Shown here piece by piece: positions 46,045-59,729 of a stretch of DNA of 64,000 bases. The notes below the pieces were generated by a model that saw nothing but the letters and a program-made list of their open reading frames with translations, had not been told where the DNA came from and made no database searches. The stretch's first letter is position 1. Each line of letters begins with the position of its first letter. The stretch is from contig JACAEX010000033.1 in NCBI GenBank assembly GCA_013388635.1, positions 2,356 to 66,355 on the forward strand. The letters run 5' to 3'. The position numbers were made by a program, and so were the translations under genes. This DNA is from Syntrophaceae bacterium (GTDB lineage: Bacteria; Desulfobacterota; BSN033; UBA1163).

Positions 46045-46746
46045 TCATCGTTTCTGATTCCTGAAGGCCATCACCTCGGATTCGACATAATTTAGATGTT
46101 CAAGCGTTTTTCTCCTCGCCTTATTGGGCGAGCGGTTCTTGATCGCATCGAATATCTGGTAATGCTGACGAATCAGTTTTTTCACCTTTTCTCGATCCGT
46201 GAAGACCCGTGCTACCGATTCCCGGAGAAGCCCGTAAATGGTGGACATGAGATGGGTCTGGATGGTGTTATGGGTTGCCTGAGCGATGGCCAGGTGAAAA
46301 TCGGCATCTTCCTTTTCCCAGGATCGACCTTCGTCAAAGGCCTTGGTCATCTCCACGATGATCTCTTCCAGCCGTTTGATATCCTCGTCCATCGCTCTTT
46401 GAGCTGCCTGAAAGGAAGCCCATGACTCCATCGCCTTTCTCACCTCTATCAGATCGAAGATCTTCTGTGTGTCCGTTTTAATGATCCGGGAGAGGGGGTC
46501 TTCAATCCTTTCCGAGATGACCGATTTGACAAAGGTCCTCCTGGCCTGTTTCACTTCGAGAAACCCCATCGCCACCAATGAGTTCAGGGCCTCTCGGAGG
46601 GTGGGACGGCTTACACCAAATTCTTTAACGAGCTGGCGTTCGGGAGGAAGGCGATCGCCGGGCTTTAGCTTGCCCTCGCTGATGAGGCCTTTGATCTGGT
46701 TTACGATTTCGTCGGAGGCCCTTTTGGGCCTGATCGTTTGGAACAT
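46045..46746 (-). CDS. FadR-subfamily GntR regulator (LutR/PdhR/GlcC-like)
   Basis: IRPKRASDEIVNQI...LKPGDRLPPERQLVKEFGVSRPTLREAL, FCD domain DADFHLAIAQATHN. Confidence 0.92.
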   Translation of the reverse strand: MFQTIRPKRASDEIVNQIKGLISEGKLKPGDRLPPERQLVKEFGVSRPTLREALNSLVAMGFLEVKQARRTFVKSVISERIEDPLSRIIKTDTQKIFDLIEVRKAMESWASFQAAQRAMDEDIKRLEEIIVEMTKAFDEGRSWEKEDADFHLAIAQATHNTIQTHLMSTIYGLLRESVARVFTDREKVKKLIRQHYQIFDAIKNRSPNKARRKTLEHLNYVESEVMAFRNQKR

Positions 46747-46959: not shown

Positions 46960-48216
46960 ATGGCTCGTTTATATGAGTATCAGGGAAAACAGCTGCTCAA
47001 GGCAGCAAAAGTCCCCATTCCTCAGGGAGAGGTGGCTACGACACCGGAGGAAGCGGGGAAGATAGCGGAGAAGATCGGGAAGCCGGTCGCGATCAAGGCG
47101 CAGATCTGGGCCGGAGGCCGGGGAAAGGCTGGAGGCATTAAGTTTGCCCAGAATCCGGAAGAGGCCAAAAAGGTCGCCAGCGATCTTCTCGGATCGGAGA
47201 TCAAGAAGCTCAAAGTGGAGAAGGTCCTTGTTGAGGAGAAGCTGGAGATCGACAAGGAGTACTATGCGGGCATCATTATCGATGCCTCCAGGGAGGTGCG
47301 TGCGCCTGTGGTGATGTTCAGCACAGAGGGAGGCATGGACATCGAATCGGTGCCTTCCGAAAAGATTGCCCAGATGCCTGTGGATGTTTTGAGAGGCTTT
47401 CGCCTTTACGATGCCCTCAATCTCGGAGTCAGGCTGAAGGTCCCGACCAAATTCCTTCCAGCGATTGCTCAGGCTGTGATGGGTCTGTACCAGACCTTCC
47501 GGTCATATCATTGCAGGACAGCGGAGATCAATCCTCTGGTTCAGACCAAGGATGGCAAGATACTGGCCGGAGATTGTCGGATGGCGATTGACGACTCCTC
47601 CGTATTCCGTCATCCGGAGCTCGGCATTGAGGTGGCGCGAGAGTCACCCACGCCTCCGACTGAGCTGGATAAGATTGCGTGGCAGATAGAGGAGGGAGAT
47701 CTCCGGGGGACCTGCTACATTGCGCAGATGGTTCCAGAGATAAAGGAGCTCAATTACGTAGGCTATCATGGAATCGGCGGAGGCGGTGCGATTCTCGGGG
47801 TCGATGCCCTGAACCGGCAGGGGCTCAAGATTGCTAACTATGCGGACACCAGTGGAAACCCGACTGCGGCAAAGGTCTACAGGGCGGCCAAAGTGATTAT
47901 TAACCAGCCGGGGATCGAAGGGTATATGCTCGGTGGATTCATCGTGGCGAATCAGGAGCAGTGGCACCACGCACACGGCGTGGTGAAGGCCCTTCGGGAG
48001 GAGATACCCAAGAGGCCGGGTTTCCCCTGCGTGATCCTCCTCTGCGGAAATAAAGAGAAGGAGTCGATGGAGATACTGAAAGAGGGGACGAAAGATTTGC
48101 CCGGAAGGTTTGAGTTCTATGGAAGCGATAAGGTTTACGAGACCGAATTCTTAGCCAAGAGAATGAAGGCGCTGATCCTGGAGTACCGGAGGGACAGAGG
48201 GATAAAGGAGGAGTAG
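46960..48216 (+). CDS. ATP-grasp beta subunit of an SCS/malate thiokinase/ACL-like acyl-CoA synthetase
   Basis: LYEYQGKQLL, IKAQIWAGGRGKAGGI, VLVEE, GGMDIE, AEINPL. The C-domain (ANYADTSGNP, GFIVANQE) diverges from SucC. Confidence 0.85.
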   Translation: MARLYEYQGKQLLKAAKVPIPQGEVATTPEEAGKIAEKIGKPVAIKAQIWAGGRGKAGGIKFAQNPEEAKKVASDLLGSEIKKLKVEKVLVEEKLEIDKEYYAGIIIDASREVRAPVVMFSTEGGMDIESVPSEKIAQMPVDVLRGFRLYDALNLGVRLKVPTKFLPAIAQAVMGLYQTFRSYHCRTAEINPLVQTKDGKILAGDCRMAIDDSSVFRHPELGIEVARESPTPPTELDKIAWQIEEGDLRGTCYIAQMVPEIKELNYVGYHGIGGGGAILGVDALNRQGLKIANYADTSGNPTAAKVYRAAKVIINQPGIEGYMLGGFIVANQEQWHHAHGVVKALREEIPKRPGFPCVILLCGNKEKESMEILKEGTKDLPGRFEFYGSDKVYETEFLAKRMKALILEYRRDRGIKEE

Positions 48217-48219
48217 GCG

Positions 48220-48513
48220 ATGATTGAGTTTAAAGAGAGAACGATCAAAGTCATCATCGACGATAGCAAATGCAAAGATTGTAAGACGCACGCATGCGCA
48301 GCGGGTTGTAAGCTCTATGACAGGGGCATCCTGGTCATTAAAGACGGCAAACCAGCGCTCGCCGGTGATGCGGCCTATGCGGAGAGGGTTGGGACGGAAT
48401 GCCTGGCCTGCGAGTATGAGTGTTCGTTCAGAGGAAATAAAGCGATCCGGATCGAAGCCCCCATTCCAGGGCTGAAGGAGTATTTGGAGAAACGGGGACT
48501 GTCACTTTCATAA
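48220..48513 (+). CDS. Small ferredoxin-like Fe-S protein
   Basis: CKDCKTHACAAGC and GTECLACEYEC (7 Cys). RBS GGAGGAG, 3 nt after the beta-subunit stop. Confidence 0.8.
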   Translation: MIEFKERTIKVIIDDSKCKDCKTHACAAGCKLYDRGILVIKDGKPALAGDAAYAERVGTECLACEYECSFRGNKAIRIEAPIPGLKEYLEKRGLSLS

Positions 48514-48526
48514 GAAGGAGTGAGAA

Positions 48527-49423
48527 ATGGCTATTTTGCTTGAAAAGAACACGACAGTGTTGGTTCAGGGAATTACCGGAAGGGAAGGGTCTGCTCGGGC
48601 GGTTTTCATGAGAGATTATGGCACCAAAGTCGTGGCAGGGGTGACACCCGGACGGGGCGGTGAAGACGTCTCAGGGATACCGGTCTACAATACCGTTGAG
48701 GAAGCGGTAAGAGCACATGGCCGGATCGATGCCAGTGTGACCTTTGTGCCCGGCCCAGGACTGAAAGATGCGGTCTTTGAGGCGATTGATGGAGGAATCA
48801 AGTTTATATCGATGCCGGTTGAGCGGGTCCCTCTGTATGACATCCTTGAGATGATGGCCTATGCAAAGGTTCATGGGGTTAAACTCCTCGGGCCAGGCTC
48901 AATCGGTATCATGAGCCCTGGGATCGCTGTCATGGGATGGCTGGGAGGCACGCCTGAGTTTGCCAAGAGGGTCTTCGTGCCAGGACCGGTTGGCGTGATC
49001 TCAAGAAGTGGGGGTCAATCCGGGACTGTACCCTGGGCCATTAAGGAAGCTGGGATGGGTGTCAGCACGGTGATCCACATCGGGACAGAGCCGGTTCTAG
49101 GTATGTCCTGTGGCGACATCCTGCCCCTGTTCGAGAAAGACCCGGACACGAAGGCGGTGGCGATGTTCGGGGAGATCGGCGGGCCCTATGAGGAGGAGGC
49201 CGCAGAGGCGGTGAGGAAGAAGGAGTTCACCAAACCTCTCGTGGTCTACGTCGCAGGCGCGTGGGCCCCTGAAGGGATGCGGTTCTCCCATGCCAGCAGC
49301 ATCATTGAGAGAGGAAGGGGGTCGGCGAAGGATAAGATCAAGTCGCTCAAGGAGGCCGGGGTCCATGTGGTCGATCGGCCGGATGAGATCGCCCCAACCC
49401 TCAAACGCTTGCTGAAAATTTAA
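48527..49423 (+). CDS. CoA-binding alpha subunit of the SCS-like synthetase
   Basis: VLVQGITGREG, GVTPGRGG, LLGPGS, ISRSGG, IGTEP, FGEIGG, phospho-His RFSHAS. Confidence 0.88.
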   Translation: MAILLEKNTTVLVQGITGREGSARAVFMRDYGTKVVAGVTPGRGGEDVSGIPVYNTVEEAVRAHGRIDASVTFVPGPGLKDAVFEAIDGGIKFISMPVERVPLYDILEMMAYAKVHGVKLLGPGSIGIMSPGIAVMGWLGGTPEFAKRVFVPGPVGVISRSGGQSGTVPWAIKEAGMGVSTVIHIGTEPVLGMSCGDILPLFEKDPDTKAVAMFGEIGGPYEEEAAEAVRKKEFTKPLVVYVAGAWAPEGMRFSHASSIIERGRGSAKDKIKSLKEAGVHVVDRPDEIAPTLKRLLKI

Positions 49424-49592: not shown

Positions 49593-49614
49593 TTCCCAAA
49601 CAGGAGGTATGACA

Positions 49615-50511
49615 ATGACTGTGATGAGATCTGTTTTTTATGTTCCGGGGAATAATGAAAAGATGGTGGCCAAAGCACCGGAGATTCCAGCCGACATCAT
49701 CACCCTCGACCTGGAAGACTCTGTTCCACCCGCTGAAAAAGCGAAGGCCCGTGAGATGACCCGTGAGAATCTGAAGTTTGCAGGCTCTGGAGGGTCGACC
49801 GTATACGTCCGGATCAACAACTGGGAGACGTTGATGACGAACGATGACCTTGAGGCGATCGTCCACGAAGGGCTCTCCGGGGTCTGTCTGGCGAAGTGTG
49901 GAGGGCCGGATCATGTCCAGCGCCTCGACTGGAAGCTTGAGGAGCTCGAGAGGAGAAGAGGCCTGCCTGTAGGGAGCATCGCCATCCAGCTTCTCATCGA
50001 AACAGCCAAAGGGGTGATCAACGCCTATCCCTCAGCCATCGCAAGCAAAAGGGTCAACTCCCTGATCTTCGGTGCGGTGGATTACACAAAAGATATGAGG
50101 GTGAAGCTGACGATCGAAGGCGAGGAGCAGTTCTATGCGAGGGCCCATACTGCTGTTGCGGCAAGGGCTGCAGGGTGCATTGCCATTGACTGCCCGTTTG
50201 TGGCGTACAAAGACACCGAGGCATTTGAAAAGAGCACGCGATTTGGCCGTCAATTAGGCTATGAAGGAAGGATGCTCATCCATCCAAGCCAGATCGAACC
50301 CTCTCACCGGATCTACACGCCAGCACCGGAGGACGTGGAATGGGCCAGAGGGGTGGTCAAGGTCTTCGAGGAGGAGGGAATTGCCAAAGGCGCGGCCGCG
50401 GTCTCCTATCAGGGGAAGATGGTAGACACCCCGGTCTATGAGAATGCGAAGACGATCCTGGCCATTATGGAAGAGATCGCCGCCTTCGATGCAAAGCGCA
50501 AAAAGGCCTGA
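49615..50511 (+). CDS. CitE/HpcH family acyl-CoA lyase (malyl-/citramalyl-/citryl-CoA lyase-like)
   Basis: RSVFYVPG, DLEDSV, YVRIN, LLIETAKG, FGAVDY, GRMLIHPSQI, GKMVDTP. Confidence 0.9.
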   Translation: MTVMRSVFYVPGNNEKMVAKAPEIPADIITLDLEDSVPPAEKAKAREMTRENLKFAGSGGSTVYVRINNWETLMTNDDLEAIVHEGLSGVCLAKCGGPDHVQRLDWKLEELERRRGLPVGSIAIQLLIETAKGVINAYPSAIASKRVNSLIFGAVDYTKDMRVKLTIEGEEQFYARAHTAVAARAAGCIAIDCPFVAYKDTEAFEKSTRFGRQLGYEGRMLIHPSQIEPSHRIYTPAPEDVEWARGVVKVFEEEGIAKGAAAVSYQGKMVDTPVYENAKTILAIMEEIAAFDAKRKKA

Positions 50512-50770: not shown

Positions 50771-51682
50771 ATGAAGATCGTTCTCGTAGGCCAGGGCCCT
50801 TTTGGAGAGAAGGTTTTGAGGTCTCTGGTTGAGAACGGCGAGAAAGTGGTCGGCGTCTTCTGTCCTCCGGATCGGAGGGGAGAGCCGTTGAGGGAGGCCG
50901 CAGAGCAGGCAGGCGTTTTGTTCTTTCGTCCCTCCCGGATGAAGAATCCCGAAGTCTATGAAGCCTACCTGAAGTTGGAGCCCGATCTGGTCATCCTTGC
51001 CTTTGTAACCGATATCATTCCAGAGAGGCTGCTCGATCTTCCTTCGATCGGGACGATCTGCTATCATCCCTCTCTTCTGCCAAGGCATCGAGGAGCCAGT
51101 GCGATCAACTGGGCGATCATCATGGGAGAGACCCGAACGGGGCTGACAATCCTTTGGGCCGATAAGGGGATTGATACCGGACCGATCCTCCTTCAAAAAG
51201 AGGTGGAGATCGGGCCCCATGATACTGCAGGGACCCTTTATTTTAATACCCTCTTTCCTCTCGGGGTTCATGCGATCATGGAGGCGGTTGAGCTGATCGA
51301 AAAGGGAAGGGCGCCTCGAATCCCTCAGGACGATTCAAAGGCGACCTATGAGCCTCCTTGCGATGATCGGGTGGCGAGGATCGATTTTGGGAGACCGGCC
51401 AGGGACGTCTACAATCTGATCAGGGGGTGCGATCCTCAGCCCGGTGCTTATACAACCTTTAAGGGGAAGAAGACGAGGTTTTATGAGGCCATGCTGATTC
51501 CGGAATCCACGGGAAGGGCCTTGGGAGAGATCATCTCCATCGAGGAGAGTGGACTTCGGGTTGCACTAAAAGATGGCGTCATCCAGATCGGTAGACTGAG
51601 GACGGAGAAAGGGGAGAAGGTTGGCCCGATCGAGTTTGCTAAATTGACCGACTTGAGAGCAGGAGATCGATTTGGAGAATAG
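50771..51682 (+). CDS. Stand-alone formyltransferase domain, similar to the 10-formyl-THF hydrolase domain of ALDH1L1
   Basis: MKIVLVGQ..FG, YHPSLLPRHRGASAINW, WADKGIDTG, LFPLG, GRAPRIPQ..ATYE, C-terminal Fmt_C domain. Confidence 0.85.
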   Translation: MKIVLVGQGPFGEKVLRSLVENGEKVVGVFCPPDRRGEPLREAAEQAGVLFFRPSRMKNPEVYEAYLKLEPDLVILAFVTDIIPERLLDLPSIGTICYHPSLLPRHRGASAINWAIIMGETRTGLTILWADKGIDTGPILLQKEVEIGPHDTAGTLYFNTLFPLGVHAIMEAVELIEKGRAPRIPQDDSKATYEPPCDDRVARIDFGRPARDVYNLIRGCDPQPGAYTTFKGKKTRFYEAMLIPESTGRALGEIISIEESGLRVALKDGVIQIGRLRTEKGEKVGPIEFAKLTDLRAGDRFGE

Positions 51683-51789: not shown

Positions 51790-53181
51790 ATGGAACGAGA
51801 GAAGATGGTTGAGGAACTGGCGGGGATCGTAGGGAAGGAGAATGTCCTGTCCTCTGAGACGGACTTGCTCCTCTACGGCTACGATGCCTCCCTCTTCAGG
51901 GGAAGGCCTGACTGCATCGTCCTTCCTGGTTCGACCGAAGAGGTTTCGAAGATCGTCAAGTTCGCCCGGGCGAATGGCATCCATATTGTCGCCAGGGGAT
52001 CTGGAACGAACCTGAGCGGTGGGACCATTCCCACCCAGGGAGGGATCGTCCTTCACTTTTCTCGGATGAACAGGGTTCTGGAGATCGACATCGAGAATCA
52101 GAGGGCCGTGGTGGAGCCGGGGATCTTCACCCTTGTGCTGAAGAACCAATTGGCCCGTTACGGATATATTTACCAACCCGATCCGGCCAGCGAGAAGGTC
52201 TCCACGCTTGGAGGAAATTTCGGAGAAAATTCGGGAGGGCCCCACTGCCTCAAATACGGGGTGACGACCAACCACATCTTAGGGGCAGAGGTTGTGCTCT
52301 ACGACGGTGAGGTGATTCAGGTCGGCGGCAAAGCCCTTGACCATCCGGGTTACGATCTAACCGGCGTGCTAGTGGGATCGGAGGGAACACTGGGAATTGC
52401 GACGAAGTTGATCCTCCGGATCATGCCAAAACCTGAAGCGGTCAAGACGATGCTCGCCATCTACAACTCCCTGGAGGATGCAGGCAGGACGGTCTCCGCG
52501 ATCATTGCCGATGGGATCATCCCTGCGACCTTAGAGATGATTGACCGATTGACGATTAAGGCGGTTGAGGAGTCGATCCACGCCGGATTTCCTCTCGATG
52601 CAGAGGCTGTTCTTCTAATCGAACTGGATGGATTAAAGGATGGGATGGAGAGGCTGGCTGAAAGGATCATGGAGATATGCAGGAAGAACAATGTCCGTGA
52701 GGTGAAGGTGGCAAAGACCGAGGCAGAGAGGGCGCAGCTCTGGGCCGGACGAAGGGGTGCCTTCGGCGCGGTGGCCCGGCTCAGGCCGAACTACTTTGTC
52801 TGCGACGGAACCGTTCCGAGAACAAGGCTGCCCGAGGTTCTGACCAGGGTGATGGAGATAGGCAGGAGATACGGCCTCGCCATTGCGAATGTCTTCCATG
52901 CGGGAGATGGAAACCTTCATCCTCTTATCCTTTTCGATGAGCGAAATGAGGAGGAGCTGAGAAAGGTCCATTTAGCCGGGTCTGAGATCTTGAAATTATG
53001 TGCTGATGCAGGTGGGACGATCAGCGGGGAGCATGGCATTGGCACGGAGAAGATGAAGGAGATGCTCTTCGTCTTCAACTCTCAGGACATTGCGGCCATG
53101 AAAAAGGTAAAGAAGGCCTTCGACCCTGAGGATGTTTATAATCCGGGGAAGGTCCTGCCGGAACAGACGCTCTCTGCTTAG
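51790..53181 (+). CDS. glcD: Glycolate dehydrogenase FAD subunit
   Basis: RGSGTNLSGG, PDPASEKVSTLGG, NSGGPHCLKYGVT, GSEGTLG, FHAGDGNLHP, SGEHGIG, NPGK. Confidence 0.88.
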   Translation: MEREKMVEELAGIVGKENVLSSETDLLLYGYDASLFRGRPDCIVLPGSTEEVSKIVKFARANGIHIVARGSGTNLSGGTIPTQGGIVLHFSRMNRVLEIDIENQRAVVEPGIFTLVLKNQLARYGYIYQPDPASEKVSTLGGNFGENSGGPHCLKYGVTTNHILGAEVVLYDGEVIQVGGKALDHPGYDLTGVLVGSEGTLGIATKLILRIMPKPEAVKTMLAIYNSLEDAGRTVSAIIADGIIPATLEMIDRLTIKAVEESIHAGFPLDAEAVLLIELDGLKDGMERLAERIMEICRKNNVREVKVAKTEAERAQLWAGRRGAFGAVARLRPNYFVCDGTVPRTRLPEVLTRVMEIGRRYGLAIANVFHAGDGNLHPLILFDERNEEELRKVHLAGSEILKLCADAGGTISGEHGIGTEKMKEMLFVFNSQDIAAMKKVKKAFDPEDVYNPGKVLPEQTLSA

Positions 53182-53203
53182 CGTGGGAGAAGGAGAAAGG
53201 AGT

Positions 53204-54565
53204 ATGCCCAGCACCATGAAAACGCTTTCTCGGCTGCAAGAGATCGTTGGGGAAGCCAATCTCATTAAGGATCGCGATAGGCTAAAGGCTTATAAACTGG
53301 ATGGAAAGACCCCCAAGGTGGTTGTCTCTCCGGCGACGGTCGACGAGACCTCCAGGGTCGTGGCTTATGCCTATGAAAAAGGGTTAGCCCTCGTCCCGAG
53401 AGGGAATGGGACAAAGATGAAGATGGGTGGCATTCCCAAAAGGGTGGACATCCTTCTTTCAACCACCCGGCTCAATCGGATAACTGATAAGGACTGCGAC
53501 AATCTCACCCTCTGCGTAGAAAGCGGCATCACCCTCGATGAGGTTCAGAAGACCCTGGCCAGAGAGGGGAGAGGCTACTTTCTTCCTCTCGACCCACCTT
53601 TCTCAGATAAGGCGACGCTCGGCGGGATTGTGGCGACAAATGCGAGCGGGCCCAAGAGATTGCTCTACGGCACAGCGAGAGACTTAATTACAGGTATGAA
53701 GACGGTCTTCCCCAATGGGGATGTGGTGGTTTCAGGTGGGAAGACGGTCAAGAATGTCTCCGGCTATGATATGTGTAAACTCCTGATCGGTTCTTTTGGA
53801 ACCCTGGGCATCATCTGTGAGATGACTTTTAGACTCCTTCCCCTTCCCGAAAAGGAGGCGACTCTCCTCCTCTCCTTCCAAAAGCTGGAGCAGGCCGATG
53901 GATTCGTTCGGGAGATCATCTCGTCCCAGCTTATTCCTGCCTCCATTGAAACCCTCAACCGACCGGCTCTCGATTATTTGAAACGCCAGATCCCTCTATC
54001 GACGGATGGGAATTATCTCGTTGCCATTGGATTGGAGGGTGTTCGAGAGGGTGTGGAGAGACAGATGGCTGAGATTGGGGAACGGGGGAAGAGATACGGA
54101 TGTGTCAACGCGGAGGCGATGGATGGGGAGGAAGGAGAGGCCTTTTGGAAGGCCCTTCGAGACTTCTCGATCTGGAGCGATCCGGATCTCATCTCTCTCA
54201 AGTCGAATTTTTTCCTGTCAAAACACGGGGAGATGATCGCAAGTTATGAAAGGATGACCGCAGAATCGGGTGTTCGATCTGCCTTGATCTGCCATTCCGG
54301 AAATGGGATCCTTTATTCCCATCTCCTCACGGCAAAGGTTTCGCGATCAAAAGCCGAGGTCTTGGCCGGGCTGATTCAAAAGATGACCCTGGAAGCGGTG
54401 AAGAACGGAGGAAATCTGATTGTGGAGTCGGCCCCTTCTTCTCTTAAAAAGAGAATCGATGTGTGGGGAGAGGCCCGGAGCGATCTCCGGATCATGCAGC
54501 GTATTAAAGAGGAGATGGATCCGAGGAGAATCCTCAACCCGGGAAGGTTTGTAGGAGGAATCTAA
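53204..54565 (+). CDS. glcE: Glycolate dehydrogenase second FAD-binding subunit
   Basis: ATLGGIVATNASGP.RLLYG..RD, GGKTVKNVSGYDMCKL.IGSFGTLG, ILNPGRF. Lacks GEHG. Confidence 0.88.
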   Translation: MPSTMKTLSRLQEIVGEANLIKDRDRLKAYKLDGKTPKVVVSPATVDETSRVVAYAYEKGLALVPRGNGTKMKMGGIPKRVDILLSTTRLNRITDKDCDNLTLCVESGITLDEVQKTLAREGRGYFLPLDPPFSDKATLGGIVATNASGPKRLLYGTARDLITGMKTVFPNGDVVVSGGKTVKNVSGYDMCKLLIGSFGTLGIICEMTFRLLPLPEKEATLLLSFQKLEQADGFVREIISSQLIPASIETLNRPALDYLKRQIPLSTDGNYLVAIGLEGVREGVERQMAEIGERGKRYGCVNAEAMDGEEGEAFWKALRDFSIWSDPDLISLKSNFFLSKHGEMIASYERMTAESGVRSALICHSGNGILYSHLLTAKVSRSKAEVLAGLIQKMTLEAVKNGGNLIVESAPSSLKKRIDVWGEARSDLRIMQRIKEEMDPRRILNPGRFVGGI

Positions 54566-54731: not shown

Positions 54732-55880
54732 ATGAAACAGGAAGAGCTGAAGACATTGTTATACGATGAGATCGCCAAATGCAATCGGTGTGGCTTCTGT
54801 TTGGCAGTCTGTCCTGTTTATACCGTTAAAGGAAGAGAGTGGGCGACGCCAAGGGGTAAGAATGCGCTGATCCGGGCGATCATCGAGAATAAGATCGATT
54901 GGACCCCGGAGATCGAGGAGACCCTCTTCCGCTGTACCGGATGCAGGCTCTGTACCCAGACCTGTTTTCCTGCTGTGGAGACGAACCAGGGTGTTCTCGC
55001 AGGAAGGGAGTGCCTGGTCGACAGAAGGCAGTACCCAAAGGTTGTCGATCGGGTGGTGGAGGCCCTGGAGAAGAATTTCAATATCTCCGGTGAGTCAAAT
55101 CAAAGCCGTTCGATGTGGGTGGAGGGATTGGGGGAGGTTCCCGATCATAAGTTTCAAAAGGAGAGGGCTGAGGTGATCTACTTCGTCGGATGTGTGGCAG
55201 CCTTCTACCCCATGGCCCATAAAATTCCTCAGACCTTTGTCCGGATTCTGGACAGGGCCGGAGTGGACTTCACCATCCTTGGAGGAGAGGAGTGGTGCTG
55301 CGGGTTTCCTCTGATTCAGGCAGGGATGAAGGAGAAGATGGGAAAACTGGTGGAACACAATGAGCAGAAGGTGAAGGAGGTGGGTGCGAAGGCCGTTGTC
55401 TTTGCCTGTCCCTCCTGTTATCACACGTGGAAGGAGAGGTATCATACCGATGCTGAGCTGCTCCACTCCACCCAGTTCATGGAGAGACTGATCGAGGAGA
55501 AGAAGATTGCTTTCAATAACGGGATTGAGAGGAAGGTGACCTATCACGATCCCTGCGATCTCGGCAGAAACAGTGGCGTTTACGACCCGCCGAGAAATAT
55601 ATTGAGAAAAATCCCCAATCTTCATCTGGTCGAACTGGAAGGAAATCGCCAGCTATCGGTTTGTTGTGGCGGGGGAGGGGATCTTGAGATGATCGATCCG
55701 GAGCTCTCCGCAGCCATTGCTCAAAGGAAGGTCGAAGAGATTCAGAGGACCGGAGCGGACGAGGTGGTCACTTCCTGCCAGCAATGCATCCGGACGATCT
55801 CCGGTTACGCCAGAAAACACAAGATCAAAATCAGGGTCAAGGATATTACCGAAGTGGTCTGGGAGGCGATGGTAAAGTAG
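54732..55880 (+). CDS. Fe-S/CCG-domain subunit (GlcF role, HdrD-like sequence)
   Basis: CNRCGFCLAVCP, CTGCRLCTQTC, FVGC, WCCGFP, YHDPCDLGR, CCGGGG, TSCQQC. Confidence 0.9.
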   Translation: MKQEELKTLLYDEIAKCNRCGFCLAVCPVYTVKGREWATPRGKNALIRAIIENKIDWTPEIEETLFRCTGCRLCTQTCFPAVETNQGVLAGRECLVDRRQYPKVVDRVVEALEKNFNISGESNQSRSMWVEGLGEVPDHKFQKERAEVIYFVGCVAAFYPMAHKIPQTFVRILDRAGVDFTILGGEEWCCGFPLIQAGMKEKMGKLVEHNEQKVKEVGAKAVVFACPSCYHTWKERYHTDAELLHSTQFMERLIEEKKIAFNNGIERKVTYHDPCDLGRNSGVYDPPRNILRKIPNLHLVELEGNRQLSVCCGGGGDLEMIDPELSAAIAQRKVEEIQRTGADEVVTSCQQCIRTISGYARKHKIKIRVKDITEVVWEAMVK

Positions 55881-56061: not shown

Positions 56062-57213
56062 ATGGGAAAGAAAGTTCAAGACAAGAAAAGTGAAGAGAAG
56101 GTTTCTCGTCGTAGGTTTTTGAAGGCCGCGGCAGCCACGGCCGGCGTGACGGCAGCCACCATCGGTGTTCCCGCGTTTCTCAAACATGCTTCGGCCGCAC
56201 CTATCAAATGGAAGATCCAGACAGCCTGGGATGCAGGCACCCTTGGGTTTGTGAAATTTCAGGAATTCTGCAAGAAGATGGGAGAGATTTCGGAGGGTAA
56301 ACTCGTATTTGAAGGTTTTCCTGCCGGTGCGATTGTGGGCACGTTTGAGATGTTTGACGCAGTGAAGGCGGGTGTTTTTGACGCTTACCATTCCTTTGAC
56401 GTTTACTGGGTAGGTAAGGTGCCTGCTTGTACCTTCCTGTCTTCTTACCCATTTGGAATGGATCGTCCGGACCAGTGGGAAACCTGGTATGAATATCTGG
56501 GAGGAAAAGAAATTGCCCGGGAAGCTTATGGCGCACATAATATGATGTACGTGGGACCCATCCAGCATGATGATAACCTGATCCATTCTAAGATACCTAT
56601 TCGATCGTTTGAAGAGTTCAAGGGAAAAAAGATCCGCTATCCGGGAGGTATGATCGCTGATATCTATCGGGCGGCTGGTGTCTCTACCGTGCTCCTTCCT
56701 GGAGGGGAAGTCTATCCTGCCTTGGAGAAGGGTGTCATCGACGCTTCGGACTATGTTGGTGCAGCGGTCAATTACAACCTTGGTTATGGAGAGATTGCAA
56801 AGTACATTATCATGGGGCCTCCCTCCACGCCATGCCTGCATCAACCTGTGGACTTGATGAGCTTGGAGGTTAACATGGGCAGATGGAAGGCTTTGCCCAA
56901 ATATCTTCAGGATATGGTAGAAGCAGTGGTCAAATGGCACTCCTGGGATCATTACGCAGCCATCCAGAAAGCGGATATCCAGGCCTTCGAAGACTTCCAG
57001 AAAAAGCAAGGGGTTACGATTATCCGGCTTAAAGAGTCCGATATTGAGAAGTTCAGGAAGTTCGCCCCGGAATTGTGGGTGACGTGGGCGAAGAAGCATC
57101 CTCTTGCGATGAAGGCCTTCAAGTCTCAATGGGAATACATGAAGTCTATCAAGATCGGCTACTATAAGGATTCAGACTTAGTTGATCTGAAAGGGAAGAG
57201 GTTAACCCTTTAG
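56062..57213 (+). CDS. dctP: Tat-exported TRAP substrate-binding protein, lactate/2-hydroxy-acid type
   Basis: SRRRFLK twin-Arg signal; WKIQTAWDAGT, FLSSY..DRPDQWETW, GPIQHD, LPGGEVYPALE, HQPVDLM. Resembles the Thermus lactate-binding TRAP protein as recalled. Confidence 0.88.
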   Translation: MGKKVQDKKSEEKVSRRRFLKAAAATAGVTAATIGVPAFLKHASAAPIKWKIQTAWDAGTLGFVKFQEFCKKMGEISEGKLVFEGFPAGAIVGTFEMFDAVKAGVFDAYHSFDVYWVGKVPACTFLSSYPFGMDRPDQWETWYEYLGGKEIAREAYGAHNMMYVGPIQHDDNLIHSKIPIRSFEEFKGKKIRYPGGMIADIYRAAGVSTVLLPGGEVYPALEKGVIDASDYVGAAVNYNLGYGEIAKYIIMGPPSTPCLHQPVDLMSLEVNMGRWKALPKYLQDMVEAVVKWHSWDHYAAIQKADIQAFEDFQKKQGVTIIRLKESDIEKFRKFAPELWVTWAKKHPLAMKAFKSQWEYMKSIKIGYYKDSDLVDLKGKRLTL

Positions 57214-57220
57214 AGGCGAC

Positions 57221-57263
57221 TGGGGAGGGGGAGCGGAATATTTTCGATTCTCCTCCCCATTTT
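57221..57263 (+). terminator. Stem-loop between dctP and dctQ (attenuating or mRNA-stabilising)
   Basis: TGGGGAGGGGGAG ... TTCTCCTCCCCA followed by TTTT. Confidence 0.5.
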
Positions 57264-57304
57264 ACGTGGATGGAACGGGCTGAAGATCCTCTGAGGAGAA
57301 GGTT

Positions 57305-57853
57305 ATGGATGGTTTGAGGAAATTTATGATGATTGTGAACAAAACCAACATCTTTGTCGGAAAGATGATGGTTGGGGTGACCCTGCTGGCTGTCTTTGTG
57401 ATCACCTTTGAGGTGGTGATGCGTTATGTGTTTAACCGGCCTACAAACTGGGGCCATGAGAGCATGATCCTCCTTTTTGCGATTTTCTACTGTGCCGCGG
57501 CCGGCTATGCCCACTACTACCGCGCCCATGTGCGAGTGGATGTTTTTTACTCGACTCGCCCTCCAAGAACAAGAGCCTACCTCGATTTGATCACCTCTAT
57601 CTTTTTCTTTCTCTTTGCGATCGTCTTCACCTATACGAGCTGGAATTTTTACTGGAGTTCCCAGACCATGCTAGGTGGAGGTAAGATATTCGGGATTACC
57701 GTTCCCGGAGAACTCTCCTTTACCGATTGGCAACCTCCTTACTATCCGGTCAAGTTTATGATGCCTCTGGGAGGGTTTTTGTTGCTGCTTCAGGGAGTTG
57801 TCTGGTTGATCCGCGATATCCACATGGCTGCGACCGGGAGGGAGATGAAATGA
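57305..57853 (+). CDS. dctQ: TRAP small permease
   Basis: EVVMRYVFNRPTNW, AHVRVDVFY, YPVKFMMP. Confidence 0.9.
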   Translation: MDGLRKFMMIVNKTNIFVGKMMVGVTLLAVFVITFEVVMRYVFNRPTNWGHESMILLFAIFYCAAAGYAHYYRAHVRVDVFYSTRPPRTRAYLDLITSIFFFLFAIVFTYTSWNFYWSSQTMLGGGKIFGITVPGELSFTDWQPPYYPVKFMMPLGGFLLLLQGVVWLIRDIHMAATGREMK

Positions 57854-59163
57854 GTATCGAGCTGATTACCATCACGATGTTTGGATCCATGTTGATCCTT
57901 TTGATGCTTGGGCTGCCCGTGGCCTTTTCCTGTGGGGCGGTGGGCATCATTTTCACTGCAATTCTGCAGGGACCTTCTGCTGTCAATATTGTCCCAACCC
58001 GAATCTTTGGCCTCATGGTAAACTATCTCTTGGACGCCATCCCCCTCTTCATCTTCATGGCCTGTATTCTTGAAAGGGGCGGTCTCATCGGAGAAATCTA
58101 TGAAATGGTCCATCAGTGGCTGGGATGGCTTAAAGGCGGTGTGGCAACAGCGTCTGTTGTAGCATGCACCATGATGGCTGCTATGGTGGGAGTGATTGGA
58201 GCGAGTGAAGTGACCATGGGCGTGATCGCCTTTCCGGAAATGCTGAGAAGAAGGTACGATAAATATATGGCTGCTGGCTCGGTGCTTGCAGGTGGAACCC
58301 TTGGGATCCTCATTCCGCCGAGTGCCATGCTCATCGTATACGGGATGGTCGATAATGTTTCAATCGGCCAGCTCTACGGTGGGGCCTTTTTGCCTGGTTT
58401 TCTCCTTTCCGCCCTGTATATAGGTTACATCTCCGTACGGTCTTATCACAACCCGATAATGGGACCTGCGATTCCCAAAGAGGAGCGTCTGCCTTTGTCT
58501 GGAAAGTTAAAGCTCTCCAAGCCAATTATACCCGTAGCCATTCTGATTTTTCTCGTTCTTGGCACTATTTTGATTGGCATTGCAGCACCCACCGAGGCGG
58601 CAGGTGTGGGATGCGCTGGAGCGTTCGTCATCCTTGCCCTACAACGCAGGTTAAAGTGGAAGGGAGTGGTCGAGGCCTGCGAGAATACCCTGAAATCCTC
58701 GGCCATGGTTCTGTGGACTATGTTCGGAGCCAACATCTTCGTCGCTCTCTACGTCATGGTGGGAGGTGGAAAGTTTGTCACGGACCTGCTTCTTGGAATC
58801 GGGGAAAGATGGGTCATCATTGGTGTCACGCAGCTTATCCTGATCTTTTTAGGTTGTTTTATCGATTGGGTCGGCATTATCATGCTCACCGTCCCGATTT
58901 TTGGCCCGATTATCCGGCAGTTGGGGTTCGACCCGGTCTGGTTCGGAGTGCTTTACGCTGTCAACCTGCAGATATCGTTCTTGTCCCCACCTTTTGGATA
59001 TGCTCTCTTCTATCTCAAAGGTGTGGCACCGCCGGAGATCTCAACGACCGATATCTGGAAGGCAGCAGCTCCATTTATCGGACTCCAGTTCATAGGATTG
59101 ATTCTCTGCATGATCTTTCCTGATATCATCCTGATCGTTCCGAAATTGTTTTATAGAGGGTGA
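57850..59163 (+). CDS. dctM: TRAP large permease
   Basis: AIPLFIFM, GTLGILIPPS, SIGQLY, QISFLSPPFG. ATGA overlap with dctQ. Confidence 0.92.
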   Translation: MSIELITITMFGSMLILLMLGLPVAFSCGAVGIIFTAILQGPSAVNIVPTRIFGLMVNYLLDAIPLFIFMACILERGGLIGEIYEMVHQWLGWLKGGVATASVVACTMMAAMVGVIGASEVTMGVIAFPEMLRRRYDKYMAAGSVLAGGTLGILIPPSAMLIVYGMVDNVSIGQLYGGAFLPGFLLSALYIGYISVRSYHNPIMGPAIPKEERLPLSGKLKLSKPIIPVAILIFLVLGTILIGIAAPTEAAGVGCAGAFVILALQRRLKWKGVVEACENTLKSSAMVLWTMFGANIFVALYVMVGGGKFVTDLLLGIGERWVIIGVTQLILIFLGCFIDWVGIIMLTVPIFGPIIRQLGFDPVWFGVLYAVNLQISFLSPPFGYALFYLKGVAPPEISTTDIWKAAAPFIGLQFIGLILCMIFPDIILIVPKLFYRG

Positions 59164-59190
59164 TATTTGAAAATCGGGTTCATATCGCTG

Positions 59191-59232
59191 GAAACGCCCC
59201 TTTTGAAAGGGGCGTTTCTCTTTTCCCCTTTT
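59191..59232 (+). terminator. Rho-independent terminator
   Basis: GAAACGCCCCTTT-TG-AAAGGGGCGTTTC followed by TCTTTTCCCCTTTT. Confidence 0.8.
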
Positions 59233-59270
59233 GGAAGGGAGGAGATTACCCCTTCCTTATTCTCCAAACC

Positions 59271-59729
59271 ATGATAAACAAGAAGTCTTCTGGCACCACA
59301 AAAACTTTTGTTTATAGAGCCCCCACGATTTATGTAGCCATTTTCTATTTAGTCCTGCTCGCTTGGACAGTTGTCTCCGTTTCTATCATGGGAACAAAGG
59401 GATGGGTCGATTGGCTTCAACTCTTTATGGTTGCTTTTGTCTTCGTCATGACCTGGTTTTTCTCTCTGGGAATTTCTTACAGGGTGGAAATAAACGAGGA
59501 TGGAAAGTTAGAGTTATTCAGCTTCAGGAGGCTCATCAGTATCCATTCCACAAAAATAGCAACGGTGGAGGGCCCCCATCTGCCCCTCGGATTCATCCGG
59601 TTTAGGCTGGAGAGGGAAAAAGCTTACCTCTTCGGAATTCCCAGAAACAGGGATCTTCAGCAGATCTTGGAAATCATCCGCAAAACAAATCCGGGCATTA
59701 AGTTCAAGAATCTTCCGTTGACCCCTTGA
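59271..59729 (+). CDS. Hypothetical membrane protein (2 TM plus possible bacterial PH-like domain)
   Basis: Two hydrophobic segments followed by a beta-rich tail (YRVEINEDGKLELFSF). Start assumed after the terminator. Confidence 0.6.
   Translation: MINKKSSGTTKTFVYRAPTIYVAIFYLVLLAWTVVSVSIMGTKGWVDWLQLFMVAFVFVMTWFFSLGISYRVEINEDGKLELFSFRRLISIHSTKIATVEGPHLPLGFIRFRLEREKAYLFGIPRNRDLQQILEIIRKTNPGIKFKNLPLTP

Follow-up and report, generated by a model that had tools for sequence, protein, structure and literature searches.

A 64,000-nucleotide (nt) stretch of the genome of a Syntrophaceae bacterium (assembly GCA_013388635.1, contig JACAEX010000033.1; hereafter the window) encodes a stand-alone formyltransferase (FT) that, judged by its sequence, belongs to a prokaryotic clade of 10-formyltetrahydrofolate (10-formyl-THF) enzymes resembling the N-terminal domain of the 10-formyl-THF dehydrogenase ALDH1L1 (FDH), here called the FDH-N-like clade. 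In Thermodesulfobacteriota and Nitrospirota, FT is a constant member of an operon for the anaerobic breakdown of glycolate/glyoxylate. The formyl-to-coenzyme A (CoA) chemistry proposed for it is known, and what is new is its conserved place in a primary, energy-limited catabolic operon, together with a recurring link of the FDH-N-like clade to formyl-CoA enzymes. A literature search found no paper describing this operon together with its formyltransferase.

The FT gene is intact, with an ATG start and an AAGGAG-type ribosome-binding site upstream, and encodes 303 amino acids (aa). A sequence-only reading of the window had named four motifs as marks of the ALDH1L1 N-terminal domain, and all of them were present at the quoted places, namely, YHPSLLPRHRGASAINW (residues 98-114), WADKGIDTG (residues 129-137), LFPLG (residues 161-165), and GRAPRIPQDDSKATYE (residues 179-194). 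Pfam assigned Formyl_trans_N (1e-35) and Formyl_trans_C (4e-19) to the protein, and the top six matches among all PDB sequences were FDH/ALDH1L1 N-terminal domains. The claimed resemblance is real, considering that the zebrafish FDH N-terminal domain (FDH Nt; PDB 4qpd) matched at 220 bits (3e-64; ∼50% identity across 274 residues) versus 170 bits for the best methionyl-tRNA formyltransferase (Fmt). A structure model built from 40 relatives had a mean predicted local distance difference test score of 96, and Foldseek ranked 4qpd first, with a template modeling (TM) score of 0.89, followed by nearly equal values for Fmt and ArnA. Since Fmt structures align almost equally well, the fold by itself does not discriminate between FDH Nt and Fmt.

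The predicted catalytic residues H99, S101, and D135 correspond to the FDH triad His106/Ser108/Asp142, while R107, D131, G133, T136, and Y193 keep FDH Arg114, Asp138, Gly140, Thr143, and Tyr200; the sole exception among the folate contacts compared is FDH Phe89, which is Ile82 in FT (FDH triad and contacts according to PMC4388273). The catalytic Asn of other formyltransferases, two residues ahead of the His, is Cys97 in FT. This Asn is lost across the whole FDH-N-like clade, as in ALDH1L1, and its position is taken by Gln in most subclades, by I/V/S/C in ALDH1L, and by Cys in the subclade of the window. Cys97, Cys197, and Cys220 were invariant among 121 close FT family members. Moreover, Cys97, which adjoins the formyl-binding His, and Cys197 were restricted to the window subclade and a few neighboring subclades. 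Cys97 was considered as a built-in formyl acceptor, a role weakened by the residues found at this position in the other subclades; because ALDH1L allows several residues there, Cys97 is not read as a catalytic nucleophile.

With FT as the query, an exhaustive profile-free search at E≤1e-30 returned representatives of 1,814 clusters. The 115 top-ranking ones were placed in a tree together with the loci-derived relatives and the genome's own Fmt as the single Fmt outgroup, in a quick search under LG+G4. FT fell into a 64-row clade (99% support in the Shimodaira-Hasegawa-like approximate likelihood ratio test [SH-aLRT]), apart from Fmt, together with many stand-alone proteins of ∼305 aa and seven long proteins. 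According to Pfam, the long proteins are of the ALDH1L type (Formyl_trans_N/C plus Aldedh), with PP-binding in two of the seven (P0164 and P0178). ALDH1L was not the immediate sister group of the window subclade (98% support), a Chloroflexi group and further stand-alone proteins being closer. The FDH-N-like clade is the source from which the eukaryotic ALDH1L1 N-terminal domain was drawn. The shared, well-supported clade and the matching triad and fold bear out the description of FT as a stand-alone ALDH1L1-type formyltransferase domain; of the wider formyltransferase tree that the sequence-only reading had proposed, the grouping of FT with ALDH1L N-domains apart from Fmt held, with Fmt represented by one outgroup sequence.

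Public annotation names FT as Fmt, and the two proteins have the same two-domain fold, on which Fmt structures align almost as FDH Nt does, suggesting at face value a second Met-tRNA formyltransferase. We regard this as barely credible, and it is excluded so far as sequence allows. The Fmt equivalog TIGR00460 gave FT 168.4 bits, under its cutoff of 201.5, whereas the true fmt of this genome, which is 95% complete, scored 313.5 bits against the same cutoff. The latter gene lies on another contig (C106) and overlaps by 4 nt an upstream def open reading frame (ORF) carrying GIGLAACQ, EGCLS, and HEIDH, in agreement with the earlier remark that no def gene lies near FT. A separate fmt had also been named as a check; it exists, so FT is not the genome's only fmt-like gene, and the proposal survives on this point. 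In addition, an 8-residue insertion of the genome's own Fmt (KGRG......PVK) is deleted from FT in the alignment, the segment being 12 residues long in FT, 12 to 15 in the window clade, and 14 to 15 in ALDH1L, versus 20 to 21 in 30 Fmt-type sequences. This insertion in the Rossmann domain of Fmt is the loop that recognizes the initiator tRNA. From the Asn-His-Asp set of Fmt (N.H.SLLP), FT retains His99 and Asp135 and has Cys97 for the Asn. With a score below the family cutoff, no tRNA loop, no catalytic Asn, and a location in a catabolic operon, FT is, to judge from its sequence and setting, not the tRNA enzyme, as the sequence-only reading had held. The charge of the C-terminal domain was tried as a test of tRNA binding and did not discriminate (+4.2 for FT versus +1.6 for Fmt). 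A third formyltransferase paralogue on contig C14 is ArnA-like and fused to an epimerase/dehydratase. The public annotation as methionyl-tRNA formyltransferase is wrong for this clade, and thousands of proteins are so named.

Two other known families also fail to accommodate FT. The PurU family (TIGR00655) scored 20 bits on FT versus a cutoff of 286, and the architecture differs, PurU consisting of an ACT domain and a single formyltransferase domain; as judged by these scores, family membership is ruled out, not a PurU-like role. FT does not have the full ALDH1L1 architecture, as it comprises two formyltransferase domains only in its 303 aa, and there is no ALDH or carrier gene within the window operon.

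The genomic setting of FT is conserved. A word-indexed search yielded >120 FT clusters with 67 to 74% identity, nearly all of 303 aa, from metagenomes of Thermodesulfobacteriota/"Deltaproteobacteria," and the named ones were annotated as Met-tRNA formyltransferase. In a scan of species-representative genomes, 74 FT loci were recovered, onto which the proteins of the window were mapped. The order of CoA ligase beta subunit, ligase alpha subunit, CitE-type lyase, and FT occurred in ∼50 of the 74 loci, carried by Syntrophaceae, Syntrophorhabdus, Desulfobacterales, Desulfohalobiaceae, and Nitrospirota, which ties FT to a glycolate/glyoxylate operon as the sequence-only reading had suggested and means that FT sits among CoA-thioester enzymes. 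GlcD-GlcE-GlcF usually come next in these loci, and a DctPQM tripartite ATP-independent periplasmic (TRAP) transporter lies nearby, as does a GntR/FCD regulator in divergent orientation. CitE is 73 to 95% identical across them and FT only 60 to 73%. Among 201 sampled genomes of the phylum, an FT-like protein (E≤1e-60) was present in 27 and a CitE orthologue (≥79% identity) in 14, and FT and CitE were adjacent in all seven genomes of the window's family. The operon in the window comprises the following genes.

46045..46746, - strand: GntR/FCD regulator of the GlcC class, divergent from the operon.
46960..48216, + strand: beta (ATP-grasp) subunit of a CoA ligase, divergent succinyl-/citryl-CoA-synthetase-like, ADP-forming.
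48220..48513, + strand: ferredoxin-like Cys-rich ORF of 97 aa, between the ligase subunits.
48527..49423, + strand: alpha (CoA-binding) subunit of the CoA ligase.
49609..50511, + strand: CitE/HpcH-type acyl-CoA lyase, probably malyl-CoA lyase, directly upstream of FT.
50771..51682, + strand: FT, stand-alone and FDH-N-like, 303 aa, predicted 10-formyl-THF formyl transferase/hydrolase.
51790..53181, + strand: GlcD-like flavin adenine dinucleotide (FAD) 2-hydroxy-acid (glycolate) dehydrogenase subunit (TIGR00387, 531 bits; cutoff 568).
53132..54565, + strand: GlcE-like second FAD-binding subunit.
54732..55880, + strand: GlcF-like Fe-S/CCG subunit.
56062..59163, + strand: TRAP transporter (DctP, 56062-57213; DctQ, 57305-57853; DctM, about 57850-59163).
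59160..59729, + strand: conserved ORF of 189 aa after DctM.

The flanking genes, including the GlcDEF-type dehydrogenase, the CitE-type lyase, and the CoA ligase, agree with the hydroxy-acid/CoA context that had been assigned to this operon, and among solved structures the lyase is closest to citrate lyase beta and malyl-CoA lyases. The 97-aa ORF (48220-48513) carries the motifs C..C....C...C and C..C...C, and the ligase subunits in many related loci are spaced 300 to 800 nt apart. No Pfam or NCBIfam match was found for the 189-aa ORF (59160-59729), which also follows DctM in at least nine related loci with 36 to 52% identity. Next to it in the window lies a divergent operon whose last gene encodes a lipoate-protein ligase (LplA). 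In the 260-nt spacer between CitE and FT, no THF/ZTP riboswitch or other conserved RNA matched Rfam at E≤1, the CitE-FT spacers of 17 related loci did not align, and a promoter/terminator scan gave no signal separating FT from its neighbors.

Several variants of the operon were observed. A class III CoA-transferase takes the place of the ligase in L018, and the Desulfohalobiaceae loci have the order TRAP-ligase-CitE-FT without GlcDEF. In L057 (11369-14026), an oxaloacetate decarboxylase alpha subunit (HMGL-like plus PYC_OADA) and an Na+-pumping beta subunit lie between FT and a methyltransferase, which speaks for a route via malate/oxaloacetate in operons of this family. A class V aminotransferase closest to the aspartate-glyoxylate aminotransferase BhcA occurs in L051, L065, L018, and L037. 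In operon versions from Desulfobacterales and Desulfohalobiaceae (L031:11620-12321, L044:10902-11582, L053:4454-5218, and L057:14955-15692), an S-adenosylmethionine-dependent methyltransferase of ∼230 aa stands directly after FT; it matches Methyltransf_11 and is weakly BioC/UbiE-like, reaching no family cutoff. Two tandem FT copies, 68% and 59% identical to FT of the window, lie between CitE and GlcD in L014 (10001-12300).

As judged from their sequences, the neighbors of FT match the malyl-CoA route of glycolate/glyoxylate breakdown. In this route, which has been described on physiological grounds for Syntrophobotulus glycolicus and Moorella sp. HUC22-1, glyoxylate and acetyl-CoA form malyl-CoA, which yields malate and ATP, and malate returns to acetyl-CoA via pyruvate (PMC8092247). 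The route needs no folate enzyme, and FT is thus an unexplained constant of the operon.

Outside the operon, the clade occurs in other contexts, some of them with formyl-CoA enzymes. In L064 and L084, FT stands beside an oxalyl-CoA decarboxylase (Oxc; 564 bits, cutoff 557) and class III CoA-transferases, the decarboxylase copies being 79% identical despite rearranged gene order. L092 carries on one strand a thiamine pyrophosphate enzyme and a bona fide formyl-CoA transferase (Frc; 725 bits, cutoff 504), with FT 88 nt downstream, and in L112 bona fide genes for both Oxc (974 bits) and Frc (732 bits) are located 5 to 7 kb downstream of FT. Altogether, four loci, representing a minimum of two or three distinct lineages of the clade with 38 to 51% identity between lineages, combine FT with enzymes that have formyl-CoA as substrate or product.

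In a second family, an FT with 51 to 55% identity follows a DctPQM transporter that is 76 to 83% identical to that of the window. Here, FT is the last gene of the DctPQM operon and has Gln for Cys97 (L166, L169, and L170 from genomes G024, G195, and G101), and the operon is convergent with por gamma/alpha/beta and a cytidylate-kinase-like/BON protein. The 2-oxoacid:ferredoxin oxidoreductase of this family was considered as a glyoxylate or oxalate type; PorB passes the equivalog cutoff, which identifies an ordinary pyruvate:ferredoxin oxidoreductase (PFOR), and the alpha subunit matches PFOR 9bt4 best, better than oxalate oxidoreductase. FT relatives with 53 to 60% identity lie just downstream of gltX in L161, L164, and L167 (genomes G154, G051, and G009), with a gene of the histone deacetylase (HDAC) family close by in L164 and L167, and the wider clade is not confined to the glycolate pathway. 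In metagenomic loci (L098, L101, L102, L107, and L113), the gene of another FDH-N-like subclade with ∼41% identity comes immediately behind BioA-, BioF-, and BioD-like genes, with a Rieske oxygenase on its other side, so that the clade may be connected with biotin or pimeloyl-carrier chemistry. The contexts of P0135, P0124, and P0122 and of the metagenome set L085-L160 were heterogeneous (biotin genes, EF-G, and transporters) and mostly uninformative.

Taking the loci with formyl-CoA enzymes together with precedents for thiol chemistry, we tentatively favor formyl transfer to CoA. FT would reversibly move a formyl group between folate N10 and the thiol of a pantetheine, in the simplest case free CoA, a reading to which we give a little less than an even chance. 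The sequence-only reading had offered formyl exchange with CoA or dihydrolipoyl thiols, or the release of formate, as options, of which the first is plausible, the second thinly backed, and the third a serious competitor. The ALDH1L1 N-domain moves the formyl group of 10-formyl-THF to a 4'-phosphopantetheine thiol, and the 10-formyl-THF hydrolase activity that the isolated domain shows in vitro requires a thiol, for example, mercaptoethanol (PMC8748788, PMC4388273). Formyl transfer from 10-formyl-THF to bound CoA has been proposed for the N-domain of HypX (PMC6802093), and LctF, a stand-alone Fmt-like protein reported in 2025, made formyl-CoA from 10-formyl-THF and CoA in vitro (PMC11730586). 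In the proposed mechanism, a substrate taken up by the TRAP transporter would be oxidized to glyoxylate by the GlcDEF-type enzyme and passed to the CitE-type malyl-CoA lyase, while the ligase of the succinyl-CoA synthetase/ATP-citrate lyase type could draw ATP from malyl-CoA. In FT, Asp135 and His99 would activate the pantetheine thiol of free CoA to accept the formyl group from folate N10, or act in the reverse direction, giving a formyl-thioester side branch of glyoxylate metabolism coupled to the folate one-carbon (C1) pool. That pool might then be acted on by formate-THF ligase (Fhs) or Wood-Ljungdahl enzymes. The sequence data establish the identity of FT, its clade, its residues, and the conservation of its operon, from which we infer both the thiol (CoA) partner and the direction of transfer. 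Fhs, which can use 10-formyl-THF, is present in the window's genome; the ligase and FT were also considered as a replacement for Fhs, an idea discarded on account of that presence.

A further version of this proposal would make FT a catabolic formyl-CoA:THF formyltransferase, with glyoxylate partly decarboxylated oxidatively to formyl-CoA, for example, by a PFOR-type enzyme, and FT feeding Fhs-dependent ATP formation or the Wood-Ljungdahl pathway; we judge this version unlikely. Either version has to postulate a source of formyl-CoA, which might be a PFOR accepting glyoxylate or, in the L018-type variant, CoA transfer from malyl-CoA to formate. Several observations weigh against formyl transfer to CoA. 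Neither the operon nor the genome has an enzyme with a known role in forming or consuming formyl-CoA, a bona fide Oxc or Frc is absent from the window's genome, and the malyl-CoA route accounts for all neighboring genes without FT. The unrelated contexts of relatives with 50 to 56% identity (gltX/HDAC-like, biotin, and EF-G) suggest that the clade perhaps serves general folate housekeeping. Among 251 sampled Chloroflexota genomes, FT stood beside Oxc in one of the two that bear Oxc. Moreover, the Oxc/Frc-linked subclades have Gln in place of Cys97 of the window, and their specificities could therefore differ.

The main competing explanation is that FT is a PurU-like 10-formyl-THF hydrolase that frees formate and THF when glycine derived from glyoxylate overloads the folate C1 pool, which we consider possible and on balance rather unlikely. 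No PurU was found in the 95%-complete genome, and the in vitro hydrolysis of 10-formyl-THF by the isolated ALDH1L1 N-domain (PMC8748788, PMC4388273) offers a precedent. The same explanation would suit the BhcA-like aminotransferase adjoining FT in L051, L065, L018, and L037, the purH-like gene next after FT in L049 and L050, the GcvH-like gene ahead of FT in L060, and the occurrence of more remote relatives among housekeeping genes. However, such a hydrolase would waste ATP recoverable by the genome's Fhs, a costly loss for anaerobes close to the energy limit, and the hydrolase reaction of ALDH1L1 itself runs through a thiol. It also leaves unexplained the constant pairing with CoA-thioester enzymes and the presence of Oxc/Frc in sister subclades.

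Rather than free CoA, the partner of FT could be a protein-bound thiol, with the formyl group moved to or from the 4'-phosphopantetheine of a carrier protein or, alternatively, a dihydrolipoyl (GcvH-like) protein. The natural acceptor of ALDH1L1 is indeed carrier-bound pantetheine on the same polypeptide (PMC8748788), FT is immediately preceded in L060 by genes for a GcvH-like and a CCG protein, and the divergent operon next to that of FT in the window ends in LplA. Nevertheless, no carrier-protein gene was present in the window operon or the ∼50 syntenic loci, and the GcvH link is one locus from another subclade, making a protein-bound partner quite improbable in our view. N-formylation of a small amine, such as glycine or another amino compound derived from glyoxylate, would be in keeping with most of the wider superfamily, which formylates amines, and with the aminotransferase neighbors in some loci. 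Against this stands the Asn conserved in the amine-formylating enzymes PurN, Fmt, and ArnA, which is Cys97 in FT, while the only characterized enzyme with the same loss, ALDH1L1, takes a thiol or water as acceptor; an amine substrate is accordingly very doubtful.

If formyl transfer between folate and CoA indeed operates in this primary catabolism, FT would fill a gap in the fate of formyl-CoA, for which, to our knowledge, current views allow no reactions besides CoA transfer (Frc) and hydrolysis. In the version judged unlikely above, with FT as a catabolic formyl-CoA:THF formyltransferase, glycolate oxidation would include a C1 branch that conserves energy and has not been described before, and FT would form a general formyl-CoA/folate bridge common to oxalate- and 2-hydroxyacyl-CoA-degrading bacteria. 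An enzyme linking formyl-CoA and folate would also lend itself to the synthetic pathways now being engineered for C1 assimilation via formyl-CoA. Moreover, the clade shows the prokaryotic stock of the N-terminal domain in the animal folate regulator ALDH1L1, and FT stands out as an additional gene for which the anaerobic malyl-CoA route of glycolate, a major algal exudate, gives no explanation.

Compared with known systems, FT is similar to the ALDH1L1/FDH N-domain in its ∼50% identity over 274 residues, the same two subdomains, the His-Ser-Asp triad, and the Tyr200 equivalent, as well as in YHPSLLPRHRGASAINW, WAD.G.DTG, the lost catalytic Asn, and membership in the same supported clade. It differs in being prokaryotic and located in a catabolic operon, in standing alone with neither a fused carrier/ALDH domain nor such genes nearby, and in two replacements, Phe89 of FDH being Ile82 and Ile104 of FDH being the invariant Cys97. 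With Fmt, FT shares the Formyl_trans_N and Formyl_trans_C architecture and fold, the genome's own Fmt being 33% identical, whereas its score under the family cutoff and its lack of the tRNA loop, the Asn, and linkage to def set it apart as a paralogue of the true fmt. The malyl-CoA route resembles the operon of the window in that the latter supplies a glycolate dehydrogenase, a malyl-CoA lyase-type enzyme, and a malyl-CoA-synthetase-type ligase, to which related loci add oxaloacetate decarboxylase or PFOR, but the described pathway is without any folate enzyme. The HypX N-domain (PDB 6j0p), which serves CO ligand synthesis for [NiFe]-hydrogenase, has the formyltransferase fold and a His/Asp active site in common with FT, but it is a distant match (69 bits; TM about 0.72), and its polypeptide continues into a crotonase-like decarbonylase domain. 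Finally, LctF, which was compared with FT by activity only, is likewise a stand-alone Fmt-like protein, and its 10-formyl-THF:CoA activity is the one proposed for FT; it belongs, in contrast, to a polyketide synthase/nonribosomal peptide synthetase cluster for lactacystin biosynthesis in Streptomyces lactacystinicus, where formyl-CoA feeds an acyltransferase (PMC11730586).

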